From: an uncultured Candidatus Saccharibacteria bacterium | GTDB lineage: Bacteria; Patescibacteriota; Saccharimonadia; Saccharimonadales; Saccharimonadaceae | Reading direction: 5' to 3' | DNA length: 64,000 bases | NCBI GenBank assembly: GCA_963518125.1 | Contig: CAUQHW010000004.1 | Span: 6,790 to 70,789 of the forward strand | Shown here: piece by piece, positions 26,399 to 64,000 of the stretch | Position numbering within the stretch: the stretch's first letter is position 1 | Layout: the number at the start of each line of letters is the position of its first letter | Translations under genes and position numbers: made by a program | Notes under the pieces: model-generated | What the model was told of the DNA's origin: nothing | Database searches by the model: none | The model's input: only the letters and a program-made list of their open reading frames with translations

Positions 26399-27478
26399 TT
26401 AGACATTGAACCGAAATTCGACGACATCATTAGGCTGCATGATGTAATTTTTACCCTCAGTGCGTATTTTACCCGCTTCACGGGCCTTAGCTTCTGAACC
26501 TGCGGCAACAAGGTCGTGGTAGCTAATGACTTGCGCGGCGATGAATCCGCGCTCAAAGTCTGAGTGGATGACGCCAGCAGCCTGTGGCGCCGTCCAGCCT
26601 TTATGTATTGTCCATGCTCTAACTTCCTTCTGACCTGCCGTGAGATAGCTCTGTAGACCAAGTGTGTCGTACGCGGCATGGATAAGCTGCGACAATCCAG
26701 TTTCGGAAGCTCCGTAGCTATCAAGCAGTTCCAAAGCGTCATTATTTGATAATTCTCTGAGCTCTTCTTCAAGCTTGGCACAAATAAATAATACTCGAGC
26801 TGGCGCGACGAGTTTGGCAAGTTTTTCCTGTAGGACATGGTCGCCGAGCCCCGCCTCGTCAACATTAAATGTATAAATAATTGGCTTGGCGGTGAGTAAA
26901 TGAAGATCATTAATTATCTCATATTTGATATTTTCTATGGATGCTATTGGTGTACCTGAATTAAGTGATGTCAGGAGCGTTTCAAGATATGTAGCCACCT
27001 GTCGTGCCTCCGGCTTGGCTTTGGCTTCTTTTTGGAGACGAGGCAGACGATGTTCTATAGTTTGGATGTCGGCAAGGATAAGTTCGGTATTGATGATGTC
27101 AATGTCAGCCTGAGGATTAATCGGGGTATTGTCGTGTCGTAATATATCTGAGTTTTCAAAGGCGCGAACGATGTGGATAATGGCGTCGCATTCGCGAATA
27201 TTGTGCAGGAATTTATTGCCAAGCCCTTCTCCTTTTGAGGCGCCAGCTACCAATCCAGCGATGTCGACGAACGTTACGGTCGCGGGGATAATTTTTTGCG
27301 TATCATACAGTTTTGCGAGCACATCGAGCCGCTCATCGGGAACCGGTACGATGCCAGTATTCGGTTCAATGGTGGCAAACGGGTAATTAGCCGCTAGAAT
27401 ATTATTGTTAGTAAGCGCATTAAATATGGTCGACTTACCGACATTTGGCAGGCCGACGATTCCGATTGATAGACTCAT
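26399..27478 (-). CDS. ychF: Ribosome-binding ATPase YchF
   Basis: GIVGLPNVGKST, ANYPFATIEPN, DIAGLV, C-terminal FRFNV. Confidence 0.97.
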   Translation of the reverse strand: MSLSIGIVGLPNVGKSTIFNALTNNNILAANYPFATIEPNTGIVPVPDERLDVLAKLYDTQKIIPATVTFVDIAGLVAGASKGEGLGNKFLHNIRECDAIIHIVRAFENSDILRHDNTPINPQADIDIINTELILADIQTIEHRLPRLQKEAKAKPEARQVATYLETLLTSLNSGTPIASIENIKYEIINDLHLLTAKPIIYTFNVDEAGLGDHVLQEKLAKLVAPARVLFICAKLEEELRELSNNDALELLDSYGASETGLSQLIHAAYDTLGLQSYLTAGQKEVRAWTIHKGWTAPQAAGVIHSDFERGFIAAQVISYHDLVAAGSEAKAREAGKIRTEGKNYIMQPNDVVEFRFNV

Positions 27479-55524: not shown

Positions 55525-55546
55525 TTTATGATGTATAATAATAGGG

Positions 55547-55884
55547 CAGCCTACTAAGCGATCGCTTGGCGGTGAAGCCAAGAGGAAAGTCCGGGCAGTA
55601 AAGGACACCGACAGTCGCTAACGGCGACCGGGGGTAACCCTAGGGAAAGTGCCACAGAAACAAAACTACCTTTGTGGCGATAGACACAAAGGAAAAGGTG
55701 AAACGAGTAAGGTAAGAGCTTACAGTCCTCGGTGGTGACACAGAGGAGAGGTAAACCCTGTCGACTGCAAGGAGGCCTACAAATGAGTTGTCCGCTCGTA
55801 GGCCGATAACCGCTTGATTTGCCTGGCAACAGGTAAACTAGATAGATGATCGCTCGCGACAGAACCCGGCTTATCGGTAGGCTG
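55547..55884 (+). ncRNA. rnpB: RNase P RNA (type A)
   Basis: GAGGAAAGTCCGGGC, GAAAGTGCCACAGAAA, GGTGAAAC, GGTAAACCC, ACAGAACCCGGCTTA; P1 CAGCCTAC/GTAGGCTG. Confidence 0.97.
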
Positions 55885-55924
55885 TAAACTAAAACCTTCT
55901 CTCAGCGGAGAAGGTTTTAGTTTA
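55885..55924. terminator. Bidirectional terminator
   Basis: TAAACTAAAACCTTCTC-loop-GAGAAGGTTTTAGTTTA. Confidence 0.85.
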
Positions 55925-58646: not shown

Positions 58647-59045
58647 GGGGCTGATATAGCTTTCGACAATTGGACTTTATCAAGGTATTCTGCGGGCCGA
58701 CGATACGCGTAACGTATGTTTTAGTTGCAAAGTCTAAACTTGCAGGTGTATTTGCTAGCTTAAAGAGCGTTTTCACTCCGATGGCTGCTGCACCAGTCGC
58801 TGCTTAATTTAAGCGACCGTCCTTGCTTTGCGGCAACAGGCAAAGCCTAGGGTGTCATATATATGTTGCTGGCTGCATGTTCGGAAGCGGCGGACATGCG
58901 GGACTTTCTCCGCGTAACGAAGCTTGGTTTTTTCGGTTTATTTTTAAGCCGAGCAACGTTATAAAATAAATTAAAAGAACCTATGCTCGTAGACGAATGT
59001 CATGATACCAGTTGGACCCGGGGGCGGTACCCGGCAGCTCCACCA
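58647..59045 (+). ncRNA. ssrA: tmRNA
   Basis: GGGGCTG...TTCGAC 5' end, CAGCTCCACCA 3' end (G3-U70), tag ORF ending GCT GCT TAA at 58807. Confidence 0.95.
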
Positions 59046-59237: not shown

Positions 59238-59731
59238 CCCCTATAGTAAATGATAAAAATGGTTATGTCAATAATTTTTGAGAAAAAATCTAGGTAAAAA
59301 ATACCACATAATTTAGAGGGTTAGTGAAGCAGTTTGATGAAAAATATAGGTTATTGCCGGACGAGGCGGTCGAACCCTAGCGGTTCCTAGTTGGTGCCCC
59401 GCACGGCCGGTGTTTTACCCGCGAGATGGCGAAGCGGGATACACCGAGGGCCTGGTTGTTTTGGTGTTTTATTTGTATAAGCGTTCAGCGAGCTGGATCA
59501 ATTACTAGATTATCTATTGGATTCATGATGTCGTATGGGGTGACCATGCAAGAACTATGGATTAGCGGACGGTATAGCAAGCATATGTTTATATTACAAT
59601 GTTGTGTATAAAACATTTTATAGAACGTAACAGATGAAAATATATAAAGATTATTACAAAAATGTTATAAATACAACATATTTTTTATGTGAAGTATTGA
59701 CCGATAAACATATACATGATAGTATTAGTGC

Positions 59732-60180
59732 AAGCTTTTAAGAAAATAAAAAGCAAAAATCAGTACAATAATAACAACATTAACAATTTACGTGACCGAA
59801 TTCACAGTAACGCATGTCGTTTGGCGTATAGTCGGCAGCAGTATGAAGCCGGAATAACAAAAGATTATTCCGCCATAGTGTTGCCGATGCTCCGCCGAAC
59901 TCGTGATTATTAACGTGTACGTGTAGTTAATAGTTGCGATGTAACGCGTTGAGCGCGCGTATAATTAGTACCACTGCGCATCCAGTTAATCCTTGTTAGG
60001 CGATTAGCAATGAGACTACTGGATGTGCGGGATGAGGAACGTTGCGCAAGGACATGCTCCGAAATTCGGAGCGGTCAGTTGCCCTGAGCGGCGGACTTTG
60101 AACAGGTGACCGCGCCCTAATAGTTATTGAGTGCGGCGGATGGTTCACTTGATCATATAATGGTTCGTCGCCTGGGCTCC
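59732..60180 (+). ncRNA. Candidate large structured ncRNA of unknown class
   Basis: TTGACC-N17-TAGTAT promoter; at least 8 helices with G-U pairs on the + strand; no credible ORF. Confidence 0.6.
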
Positions 60181-60204
60181 CTTAGTCTATGATATAGTGT
60201 GAGT

Positions 60205-60585
60205 ATGAAGTATCGGTATGTTGCTATGGTCGCGGCGCTGGCTGCGACGGCAGATGTCGTATTGGTGCACACGGTGACGCCAATGAGCGTTGGTCCGTTG
60301 GGCGTCCTAGCGTTTTTCGTGTGTCTGTATGTAGCAACTGCGTCGTGCTGTTATTTAGTGATGGTCGCGGCGCGGCGTGTAGCGATGCGTGTTGTTCGAC
60401 ATAATATGTATCGTGGCCTGGCTTCGGTAACGCCGTTGAAATTATATTATTATGCGAGTATTATCGGGCTGATACCGGTTATCTTGCTTGGTATGCAGTC
60501 AATTGGTGGTGTTACGGCGTGGGATGTCTTGCTCCTGATGCTTTTTTTGGGCCTTGGTTGTTTTTACATACACAAACGATTTTAG
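60205..60585 (+). CDS. Hypothetical membrane protein (about 4 TM)
   Basis: Hydrophobic ORF; TGaTATAGT 6 nt upstream of ATG. Confidence 0.75.
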   Translation: MKYRYVAMVAALAATADVVLVHTVTPMSVGPLGVLAFFVCLYVATASCCYLVMVAARRVAMRVVRHNMYRGLASVTPLKLYYYASIIGLIPVILLGMQSIGGVTAWDVLLLMLFLGLGCFYIHKRF

Positions 60586-60624: not shown

Positions 60625-61038
60625 ATGAATCCAGAGTTGCCTCAGGTGCGTCCATCGGTTGAGAGTTTACCGCCTGCTTCAAGCGGTGAGTTTCGGCTGG
60701 ATGGTGATGCAAATCAGGTAGAGGCTGAGAGACGTTCTGCCGAACGCCCAGCGGTAAATGTGGCGAACTCACCGATGCTAGCAACGGTACTACCGACCGT
60801 TCCGGTGCCGGCGCCTCCAGTGGTGCAGGCACCCGCGTCGACGACGACGTCAACTGACGATACGCCGCTGATAGCTGGTGATGATGATTTGATTGAAAAG
60901 GAGTGGGTTGACAAATTGAAACGGATTATTACCTTGACAAGGGATGATCCGTACGAGCGAGCACGGGTAATCGCGCAGTTGCAGGCTGATTATCTCAAAA
61001 AGAGATACAACAGGGAGATGGGCCAATCGAACGGATAG
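60625..61038 (+). CDS. Hypothetical protein (Pro-rich N-terminus, helical C-terminal domain)
   Basis: 137 aa, DLIEKEWV..DDPY..DYLKKRY; TGgTACAAT 6 nt upstream. Confidence 0.8.
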   Translation: MNPELPQVRPSVESLPPASSGEFRLDGDANQVEAERRSAERPAVNVANSPMLATVLPTVPVPAPPVVQAPASTTTSTDDTPLIAGDDDLIEKEWVDKLKRIITLTRDDPYERARVIAQLQADYLKKRYNREMGQSNG

Positions 61039-61042
61039 GAAT

Positions 61043-64000
61043 ATGGATAGCGGGCCGTTAATTACTGGTTTTATCGTCGTCGTAGTGTTGGCGATCGGCG
61101 TAACGATTGTTACACTGCAGTATCGCAAGATGCTACGTGAAGCAAAAAATTATGAGCGTGGGCTAAAAATGGTGCCGCTACTGATTCACTTGCCGCCATC
61201 AAGTGAAGATATTGATGGGGCGAGTCGTGACCAGCGTGATCTAACGGAAGAAATTCTCAGCCAGGCGCAAGTGATGTATAACATTATATCAAGTACGGCA
61301 ACGAAAGGATTTAAGAGTCGACTCTATGGGCAGCGCCATTTGTCGTTTGAGATTATTGCGCGTGGCGGTTTGGTGCATTATTATGCTGTCGTACCGACGG
61401 TGCTGGTTGATGTAATTCGCCAAGCGATTGCGGCAGCCTATCCGGCGGCACGGTTGGAGGAGGTGGCTGATACAAATGTGTTTAGTAAAATTGGCAAGAT
61501 GAGCGGGACAATTGGTGGTGAATTCTCGCTTCGTAAGTCATTCGTCTACCCTATCGCAACCTACCAAGAGTCAAAGCGAGATGCGTCGCGGGCGCTACTG
61601 AATGCCATGTCGGCGGCGACAAAAGACGATGGTATCGGCTTGCAGTTCTTGGTTCGGCCGGCACGGGAAGGCTGGTCGCGTGCCTCAGAAGAGCATGTTG
61701 AGAAAATGAAGAAGAACAAGGGCAAGAAATCAACGAAGGTGGCGGGCGTTGATATCTCAATGGTCGGGGACATTTTTGAGGCGTTGTGGAAACCACCACA
61801 GTCGGCAAAAGAAAAAGAAGGCGAGATCAAGCCCGAGGATAAACAGCTATCGTCACTAGAGCAGGCAGAGGTTGATGCCGTTAGCGAGAAGACGCGTTAT
61901 CCGGCGTATGAGGTATTGGTGCGGGTGGTAATTTCATCAAATACTGCCGCTCGTTCACAGGTGCTACTTAAAAATATTATCGCTGCGTTTGCGATGTTTG
62001 ACTCGCCACGCAATAACGGTTTTCGTTTTTCGCTGACAAATAATATTGAGGAAATGACTACGGCGTATATTATGCGGTTTTTCCCGCAGCATATTCGCAG
62101 TAATATCCTTAATAGTGTCGAGATGGCGACTCTGTTTCACTTGCCGAGCGCAACTGCCATTCCAACTTCACAGGTTAAGCGGCAGATGTCCAAGCAGGTT
62201 GATGGGCCGACTGATGTCTTGGACGAGGGACTATTGATTGGCTACAACGAATTTCGTGGTACGAAAAAGCCAATTCGTATCGGTACGAAAGATCGCCGTC
62301 GCCACGTTTACATCATCGGTCAGACTGGTGTTGGTAAGTCGGTATTGCAGGAAAATATGGCGTATCAAGACATGATGGATGGCCGAGGGTTTGCACTGAT
62401 CGATCCGCATGGTGATTTGGTCGAGTCGCTCATGGGGAAGGTGCCGAAAGAGCGAGTGGAAGATATTATCTATTTCAACCCCGCCGATATGGAAAACCCG
62501 ATTGGCCTTAATATGTTTGAATTCGACAGTCCAGATCAAAAGGACTTTCTGGTGCAGGAGGCGATTAACATGCTGTATGGGCTGTACGATCCGGGGCATA
62601 CCGGTATTGTGGGGCCACGGCTTGAGCATATTTTCCGTAACTGTGCGCTGCTATTAATGGCGGATCCGGCTGGCGGAACATTTATTGATGTACCAAAGTG
62701 TCTCATTGATCCAGAATTTGTGAAGAGCAAGCTGAAGTACGTCACTGATCCGCAGGTGATTGATTTCTGGACGAAGGAATTTCCGGCCTCACAGCGATCA
62801 AATGAGGCCGGTGAGGTGATATCGTGGGTGGTCTCGAAGTTTGGCCCATTTATCTCTAATGATTCGATGCGTAATATCATCGGTCAGACGAAGTCAGGCT
62901 TTAATATCCGTGAGATTATGGATAATAAGAAGATTCTGCTAGTTAATTTGTCGAAAGGTAAGCTTGGTGAGCTGAACGCTAAGCTACTAGGAATTATCTT
63001 TATCATGAAGTTTCAGGCGGCGGCTATGTCGCGGGCTGATATCCCGGAAGAGCAGCGTGAAGACTTTTCACTATATGTTGACGAGGTTCAGAACTTTGCG
63101 ACTGATAGTTTTGAATCAATTTTGTCTGAGGCGCGAAAATATAAGCTGAGTTTGATCATGGGTAACCAGTTTATGACGCAGCTGACGGAGAAGATTCGCG
63201 AGGCTATCATCGGTAACATTGGTACGGTTATCTCGGGGCGTATTGGTATCACCGACGCGGAATTGATGGTCAAGAAGTTTCAGCCGGTGTTTGATATTGA
63301 TGACTTATCAAAGCTACCAAATTTCCAGTCGATCGCTTCGGTGATGATCAATAATGTGCCGTCGGCGCCGTTTAGCATGAACTGGGTGCCACCGATGGGG
63401 CAGGTTAACAATCAGCTTCGCGATGCGTTGGTGCGACTATCGGCAGCAAAGTATGGCAAGCCACGCGCGGTGGTTGAGAAGGAGATATTTGAGCGGCTTG
63501 GTCGCAATAAAAAGCCAGCGGCTTTGTCGACTGGCCCATCACTCAATCGGCCGGCTACAAAGAGCGGTTCGTCTTTCCTGGACGAGTGGTTGTCAAAACG
63601 TCAACAACTTGGTGGTGGCAAGCCGGGGGCTATGGGCGCCGCCGCTCCGGGTGCGGGGCAGTCTCGGTTGGGTACGCTATCGCCACTAGCTTCGCAGCCG
63701 GGGCAGCCAGCTACGTCGCGATTAGTATCGCCGACTCCGGGCTTGGCGGGCACACAACCGCAGTCGGCTTCTATGCGGCCGCCACAGATTGGGCAAGGTG
63801 CTGCGCCACAAGGTATCGCTATGCCCGCCCAGACGGCTGGCCAGATGCCGCAGGGAGTTGGTGCTTCGTTGAACAGGCCATCGGGGCAGCCAGCGAGTGC
63901 GCCTCATGATAGTTTGCGATCGCCAGATCAGCATCCGGTGCCTGCGCCGACAGTGGCTGGCTCAGATGTGGCTGCGCAGACCGCGCCGCTATCAATTGCT
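61043..64000 (+). CDS. VirD4/TraD-like (type IV coupling / HerA-FtsK superfamily) ATPase; 3' end runs off the window
   Basis: Not in the ORF track. ATG 61043, N-terminal TM, HVYIIGQTGVGKS Walker A, DPHGD, LYVDEVQNF Walker B, EARKY; frame checked at start, Walker A and the 3' end, open to nt 64000. Confidence 0.88.
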   Translation, partial: MDSGPLITGFIVVVVLAIGVTIVTLQYRKMLREAKNYERGLKMVPLLIHLPPSSEDIDGASRDQRDLTEEILSQAQVMYNIISSTATKGFKSRLYGQRHLSFEIIARGGLVHYYAVVPTVLVDVIRQAIAAAYPAARLEEVADTNVFSKIGKMSGTIGGEFSLRKSFVYPIATYQESKRDASRALLNAMSAATKDDGIGLQFLVRPAREGWSRASEEHVEKMKKNKGKKSTKVAGVDISMVGDIFEALWKPPQSAKEKEGEIKPEDKQLSSLEQAEVDAVSEKTRYPAYEVLVRVVISSNTAARSQVLLKNIIAAFAMFDSPRNNGFRFSLTNNIEEMTTAYIMRFFPQHIRSNILNSVEMATLFHLPSATAIPTSQVKRQMSKQVDGPTDVLDEGLLIGYNEFRGTKKPIRIGTKDRRRHVYIIGQTGVGKSVLQENMAYQDMMDGRGFALIDPHGDLVESLMGKVPKERVEDIIYFNPADMENPIGLNMFEFDSPDQKDFLVQEAINMLYGLYDPGHTGIVGPRLEHIFRNCALLLMADPAGGTFIDVPKCLIDPEFVKSKLKYVTDPQVIDFWTKEFPASQRSNEAGEVISWVVSKFGPFISNDSMRNIIGQTKSGFNIREIMDNKKILLVNLSKGKLGELNAKLLGIIFIMKFQAAAMSRADIPEEQREDFSLYVDEVQNFATDSFESILSEARKYKLSLIMGNQFMTQLTEKIREAIIGNIGTVISGRIGITDAELMVKKFQPVFDIDDLSKLPNFQSIASVMINNVPSAPFSMNWVPPMGQVNNQLRDALVRLSAAKYGKPRAVVEKEIFERLGRNKKPAALSTGPSLNRPATKSGSSFLDEWLSKRQQLGGGKPGAMGAAAPGAGQSRLGTLSPLASQPGQPATSRLVSPTPGLAGTQPQSASMRPPQIGQGAAPQGIAMPAQTAGQMPQGVGASLNRPSGQPASAPHDSLRSPDQHPVPAPTVAGSDVAAQTAPLSIA

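Follow-up and report, generated by a model that had tools for sequence, protein, structure and literature searches.

Several described bacterial RNAs provide points of comparison for the element reported here. CrcZ and CsrB are decoy RNAs by their mode of action, and SRP RNA and 6S are near-universal stable RNAs. OLE RNA is ~600 nt long with ~25% of its positions highly conserved, the gene most often found downstream of it codes for a membrane protein with four predicted helices, and binding of OapA has been demonstrated (PMC12265935). The raiA motif RNA/ModT has a small core and comes in subtypes with different peripheral stems (PMC12968392).

A new phylum-level orphan ncRNA family of Patescibacteria is represented in the 64,000-nt stretch of Saccharibacteria DNA analysed here (the window) by a predicted ncRNA of ~450 nt at 59732–60180 (+), recognised by its fold (z -6.72), covariation and homologues, with both ends predicted. 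The RNA gene is real and is spread far beyond the source lineage, with a conserved promoter, a covarying structure and no conserved ORF. Like OLE RNA and OapA (PMC12265935), it is a stand-alone structured ncRNA with a four-helix membrane protein usually encoded downstream, a likeness that holds in the class and in family f91 but not in most other out-of-class genomes. It differs from the OLE RNA described there in its size of ~130 to 480 nt, its few conserved letters and the lack of a match to Rfam OLE. The four-helix protein, unlike OapA, has neither OapA similarity nor a known family, and protein binding is here only a candidate property. As with raiA/ModT, this is a phylum-scale orphan RNA with subtypes; however, the raiA structure outlined in PMC12968392 is compact at its core and includes two pseudoknots and a closing P1, whereas the core of the Patescibacteria RNA is a linear set of hairpins. 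The compact Saccharimonadales copies have no 5'-3' closing stem and few conserved nucleotides.

The initial annotation had claimed a near-consensus promoter beginning at 59697, and its sequence elements are present there. This sigma-70-type promoter (59697–59725, +) reads as a -35 TTGACC at 59697, a 17-nt spacer and an extended -10, TG-a-TAGTAT, at 59717–59725. Such a promoter alone stands at chance level in a local scan (6 sites seen vs 5.5 expected). A TTGA(C/T)..TG.TA(G/A)(C/T)AT site is found upstream of the RNA in 21/21 genus loci; 61 of the 63 order-level loci with enough flank fit a looser -35/-10 pattern. The 65-codon ORF at 59716–59913, whose conservation as a protein had been raised as a check, takes its ATG from the extended -10 and is not conserved; it spans 64–65 aa in 3/21 genus loci and is broken, at 3–20 aa, in the other 18; a coding reading was rejected. 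Because no U-tract terminator follows the RNA in the source genome, we can only infer its 3' end, at about 60177–60185. Cover from four contig runs was sparse and too thin to speak for or against expression. Upstream of the promoter, at 59580–59695 and in homologues, lie conserved ACAAC / AACAGAT / TTGTA repeats, possibly the binding sites of some regulator.

Folding of 59730–60185 (456 nt, +) gave -167.4 kcal/mol and z = -6.72, with 0/100 shuffles as stable, vs z = -2.38 for the opposite strand. The sense z is the stronger in 8/8 homologues, two of them nearly tied, which upholds the + polarity first proposed for the RNA; G-U pairs make up 19 of the 139 predicted pairs. Every helix named in the initial annotation was found at its coordinates, although the 14-bp stem (59901–59939, +) and the GCGA tetraloop proved to be lineage-specific inserts. 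Both are missing or changed in most relatives in a 13-sequence alignment, and the stem is an optional insert that is absent or shortened in most of them. This alignment (A6; 13 family sequences, 12 helices, L004 incomplete) also bore out the covariation looked for in relatives. In the family form, 93.7% of cells are paired and 23/63 pairs show a change on both sides. Covariation reached 0.217 vs 0.134 (0/500 shuffles), with slid registers all far lower; the shuffle controls ignore relatedness, so these values are support rather than a probability.

The 5' hairpin P1 (59734–59754, +) bears an A-rich loop that reads AAAACAAAA in most relatives and AAAAUAAAA here. In the 13 sequences 80% of its cells are paired, with partial misalignment, and the A-rich motif recurs in 54/63 order loci. 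Two domains are family-level features: PA/PB (59821–59898, +; 59821–26/59893–98 and 59832–40/59879–87), which has a variable tip, and PD/PE (59957–60047, +; 59957–72/60036–47 and 59978–86/60018–26). Double changes fall on 5/6 pairs of PA, 3/9 of PB, 3/4 of PD and 6/9 of PE. A candidate 4-bp pseudoknot (59889–59954, +), joining GCUC at 59889–92 with GAGC at 59951–54, has all cells paired in these sequences and one double change; it is weak and is broken in some family members. The P3 hairpin with its GAGCGGUCAGU motif (60056–60079, +) is near-invariant in the order, and 27/28 published order loci carry the motif. The long 3' arm, P4 (60081–60177, +), shows covariation of 0.388 vs 0.220 in one set and 0.426 vs 0.222 in another; any invariant letters of these sets are circular because the sets were picked by pattern. 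Its phylum-level core, CC-G-CGCC / AU-rich loop / GGCG-GAU-GG, is a bulged hairpin at 60110–60143. Three elements persist: the consensus promoter, a motif of the unpaired AAACAAAA type and this 3' hairpin. The dense helices and candidate pseudoknot of the family form would accord with a ribozyme, or with an elaborate assembly made of RNA alone in the manner of ROOL, GOLLD or raiA. However, those domains are missing from 135-nt copies and the cross-class P4 set has just 6 invariant columns out of 70, and we regard such a function as very improbable. A protein-binding scaffold or a decoy fits better than a ribozyme or riboswitch, since only two short modules are constant, against a body that varies by more than threefold.

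Large forms contain a further element, an unpaired ACAUUAACAAUUU (59777–59789, +), which resembles a sequence ~80 nt before the 16S rRNA in relatives and closely matches it in four of five (G006, G011, G003, G072). ACNTTAA(C/A) is present in 13/13 rows of A6, and this type of element is not evident in compact copies. We take both the RNA element and its 16S leader counterpart to be boxA. An rrn-type boxA, confined to the large forms, is supported by the match to the rRNA leader and by a genome that encodes NusB, and suggests that the large form is transcribed like a stable RNA.

Rfam 15 yielded no family at or above gathering score at the window locus, as the initial annotation had expected, and on homologues (12, 16 and 14 loci) it matched only the flanking tmRNA, RNase P and tRNA. 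With the stable fold and covariation, this sustains the proposal of a structured ncRNA that stands alone and lies outside all Rfam families. The genome's RNase P and tmRNA lie elsewhere in the window, at 55546–55889 and 58647–59045. SRP RNA was rejected as an identity for lack of the SRP helix-8/domain IV motif and of an Ffh partner, and 6S for lack of an RF00013 match or a rod with a central bubble. The raiA motif (RF03072) gave no match at the locus and just a 9-bit match elsewhere. A T-box or riboswitch leader was set aside as there is no Rfam match and the downstream genes vary outside the class. Pairing with 16S rRNA was also discarded, since three motifs did not outscore their shuffles against any gain on three 16S sequences. 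The C-rich loop seems to resemble RsaE, a likeness that found no Rfam support. More broadly, a base-pairing small RNA would direct C/U-rich loops at purine-rich mRNA sites. Candidates for this task are UCCCCCU loops or ACCUCCUU tracts, unpaired in copies from other orders and classes, and an AAUCCUU bulge near 59988 in the source family. The C/U tracts are, however, absent from compact copies and differ between lineages, and the persisting motifs are A-rich or paired, so this mode of action seems improbable.

BLAST detected the element in 20/24 same-genus genomes and in 0/16 genomes of other families. In the source family, 28 loci were considered, of which 27 were readable in the right orientation (L314 was left out); all 27 hold the RNA upstream of the membrane protein gene, at ~230 to 480 nt. 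L293, L294, L295, L300, L301 and L197 are intermediates that join this large form to a compact one. Loci were also anchored on the small protein at 60625, found in 143/151 genomes (one unpublished); of the 28 published top loci, 27 carry GAGCGGUCA at the same place. Most order copies are compact, consisting of the promoter, P1 with a AAAACAAAA loop, variable stems, P3, a CAGUCA linker, P4 and often a terminator. They measure 128–286 nt with a median of 153 (63 loci with enough flank), and the large, OLE/ROOL-like size once offered as a defining trait is therefore not one.

A pattern scan over 185,579 species genomes gave 80 loci that were scored with model R1, short-flank hits (40) being left out. 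R1 matched 65/80. Of these, four are labelled 'uncultured bacterium' and two bear odd names; the rest are labelled Saccharibacteria or Patescibacteria. One of the two oddly named loci (L082) has the membrane protein adjoining. The 15 loci without a match were all labelled non-Patescibacteria and were rejected. The 34 viral pattern hits, with a best R2 score of 20.5 bits, were likewise taken as chance. Across 150 class genomes R1 matched 34 and the P4 model R3 matched 57; both miss most of the source family although the RNA is present there, so the few R3 matches in the large class families f149 (1/25) and f153 (0/10) and in f159 (0/6) are not proof of absence. Class copies from other orders measure 244–382 nt. 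Outside the class, R2 and R3 identified 16 genomes from 10 families, seven of which had trained R3 and nine of which were new, with an intergenic, strongly folded RNA of 350–500 nt that ends in P4, mostly has a U run and nearly always contains AAACAAAA. R3 matched 31/150 out-of-class genomes at E<=0.1, many of them by chance, and most genomes had no detected RNA; weak phylum hits within genes or tRNA flanks were discarded as chance (6/13 and 7/16). Built without the window sequence, R3 placed its best hit in the 64 kb at 60101–60154 (+, E 0.032), which is weak alone and agrees with the position and the intermediates. The search for homologues suggested at the outset has thus traced them across Saccharimonadales, other class orders and 16 out-of-class genomes. 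In G180, two P4 modules stand 320 nt apart (L238, 1500–1880), as a tandem pair or a double-length RNA.

The usual downstream neighbour of the RNA is a 126-aa hydrophobic membrane protein (60205–60585, +), predicted as four helices (pLDDT 93). Among 29 family members nothing reached the Pfam cut-off and no PDB sequence matched convincingly, Atlas holds only unnamed clusters, and Foldseek returned no match for the fold at E<=0.001; the best VIA match (Z 9.8, rmsd 4.6) is to generic helical bundles. The protein was found in 101/150 phylum genomes. A small protein (60625–61038, +) and a TraG/VirD4-like ATPase (61043 to the window end at 64000, +) follow, as context in Saccharimonadales only. The membrane protein lies 3' of the RNA in 63/64 order loci, in 9/12 other-order loci by pattern with a tenth visible, in 10/12 further class loci (directly next in 8) and, outside the class, in two genomes of family f91 (G287, G196). 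The RNA is always on the same strand as this gene, mostly 30–270 nt upstream. In other orders the RNA stands directly before a ~120-aa membrane protein, without ssrA or the ATPase, between genes that are presumably trpS and pheS/pheT, and the RNA-protein pair is therefore common to two neighbourhoods, ssrA/ATPase vs trpS/pheST. This speaks against the tie to the VirD4-like locus drawn in the initial annotation, which had also called the link to all three downstream genes only positional; that to the membrane protein persists when the neighbourhood changes and is seen again outside the class. In 14/16 out-of-class RNA genomes no membrane protein gene was seen adjoining and other genes follow. 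R1 detected no RNA at 23 loci of the membrane protein from outside the class, and in at least 13 of these the protein precedes pheS. RNA, protein and pheST may represent an ancestral block that moved once, its linkage being partly inertia.

If the RNA acted in cis, as a leader or attenuator of an operon with the membrane protein and, ancestrally, pheST, this would suit the constant strand and close spacing, the U that often follows P4 (31/63 order loci) and the lack of a clear terminator behind the RNA in the source genome. However, the next gene has its own extended -10, as first annotated (TG-a-TATAGT, 60190–60198, +, pattern only; TATAGT at 60193–60198, 6 nt before the ATG), and its mRNA is probably leaderless. 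A separate terminator, a second hairpin with a U tract, intervenes in 40/63 order loci, no T-box or riboswitch matched, and outside the class the downstream genes differ or face the opposite way. A leader role is as improbable as base pairing.

The source genome, which is 97.7% complete, yielded no SRP RNA (RF00169, 0 hits), 6S, raiA or Ffh, and no Hfq or Rho RNA-binding domain was found; it does have NusB and a KhpA/B-type KH protein. Ffh (PF02978) was found in 0/150 phylum genomes, and from these searches Patescibacteria appear to have lost SRP. SRP RNA and 6S thus seem to leave a gap that the Patescibacteria RNA could fill, although it has neither the SRP helix-8 motif nor the 6S rod. A rival reading is a soluble decoy or regulator like 6S or CsrB/CrcZ, titrating RNA polymerase, a Nus factor, a KH protein or the ribosome, with the membrane protein a bystander. 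The unpaired AAACAAAA motif is repeated in some lineages, as in CrcZ/CsrB, and the A/C-rich 5' part gave a weak CrcZ match. The genome without a 6S hit yet with NusB and the KH protein is compatible with such a role, as are the genes following several out-of-class copies, which from their sequence are presumably dksA/lspA/rluD-like. Unlike CrcZ/CsrB, the RNA shows no repeated GGA loops, its CrcZ score of 17 bits is far under the cut-off of 95, and no Hfq was found. The fold lacks the rod with a central bubble, and the recurrent linkage to one membrane protein gene would be left unexplained. We place this reading second and consider it rather unlikely.

Other RNA features lie close by or in relatives. 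A second conserved small RNA runs from 59236 to ~59125 (-) behind a TTGACA-17-TACTAT promoter (59271–59243). It comprises a hairpin, an A-rich linker and a strong terminator (z -4.4), is ~82% identical across the genus, above tmRNA, is recognisable in another genus (L295) and has no Rfam match at cut-off. This promoter accounts for 59245–59272, for which a dif reading was rejected; GC skew shows no switch on the contig. The tmRNA at 58647–59045 matches Rfam and was missed by ARAGORN; it has a GGCGGUA T loop and a long tag region. Between the second small RNA and the main RNA, 59346–59460 is a GC-rich patch, probably folded and conserved in the closest relatives only. Near 27100 (+) of G000:C2, a promoter is followed by GCACCUUA and a CCCCC tract, possibly another non-coding RNA. 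In three genus relatives (L288–L290) a terminator-like hairpin follows the 16S rRNA, which retains the anti-SD CCUCC, and no 23S start occurs in the next ~550 bases, which suggests unlinked rRNA genes. In L291 (G072) the 16S gene passes, close to its 3' end, into unrelated sequence that is probably an intron.

The reading ranked first, tentatively and at somewhat less than an even chance, is that the stand-alone, single-copy RNA is a protein-binding scaffold, possibly held at the membrane with the four-helix protein. A membrane-held complex is preferred because the recurring downstream four-helix protein parallels ole/oapA. The RNA would be transcribed independently, and its function would rest on two short modules. 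The first would be the unpaired AAACAAAA motif, in one to about three copies, and the second the 3' hairpin P4, with a CGCY/RGCG stem, a 2–4-nt bulge and a 15–20-nt AU-rich loop. The sequence between them may grow and shrink like expansion segments, and large forms would add the rRNA-type boxA, loading NusB/S10 during transcription. In the least certain step, the partner would be the neighbouring membrane protein, tethering the RNA to the membrane in the way that OapA holds OLE RNA. There is a slim chance, below that of base pairing or a leader, that RNA and protein form a Patescibacteria-specific membrane ribonucleoprotein replacing an SRP job, one that would use the A-rich motif and P4 to catch ribosomes or mRNAs for docking at the membrane. 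If true, this would be an independently evolved RNA-based targeting route for membrane proteins.

Literature searches, which covered the main texts of four RNA discovery papers (PMC11109978, PMC8040213 and two 2026 language-model preprints), found no description of the RNA. These main texts do not mention Saccharibacteria/TM7; those of the two preprints also lack Patescibacteria/CPR, and that of PMC11109978 lacks Patescibacteria. According to a TM7x transcriptome preprint, no small RNA had been validated in Patescibacteria (10.1101/2022.03.25.485537). Southlakia genes, with orthology assigned by position and length, were scored by Tn-seq as NE/GD/GD (SEML1_0140), GD/ES/ES (SEML1_0141), ES (ATPase) and GD/ES/ES (NusB) in a table that leaves intergenic DNA unscored; the syntenic SEML1_0140 thus has a growth defect and NusB is essential (PMC10633639). 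Patescibacteria make up a large share of bacterial diversity and have stripped-down genomes. A single-copy RNA kept across many lineages in cells with no detectable SRP, 6S, Hfq or Rho likely has a basic role. Its smallest form has just 135 nt, two of its motifs are candidates for function and a partner can be proposed; as Southlakia is a genetically tractable host with syntenic genes, the function of the RNA is directly testable.
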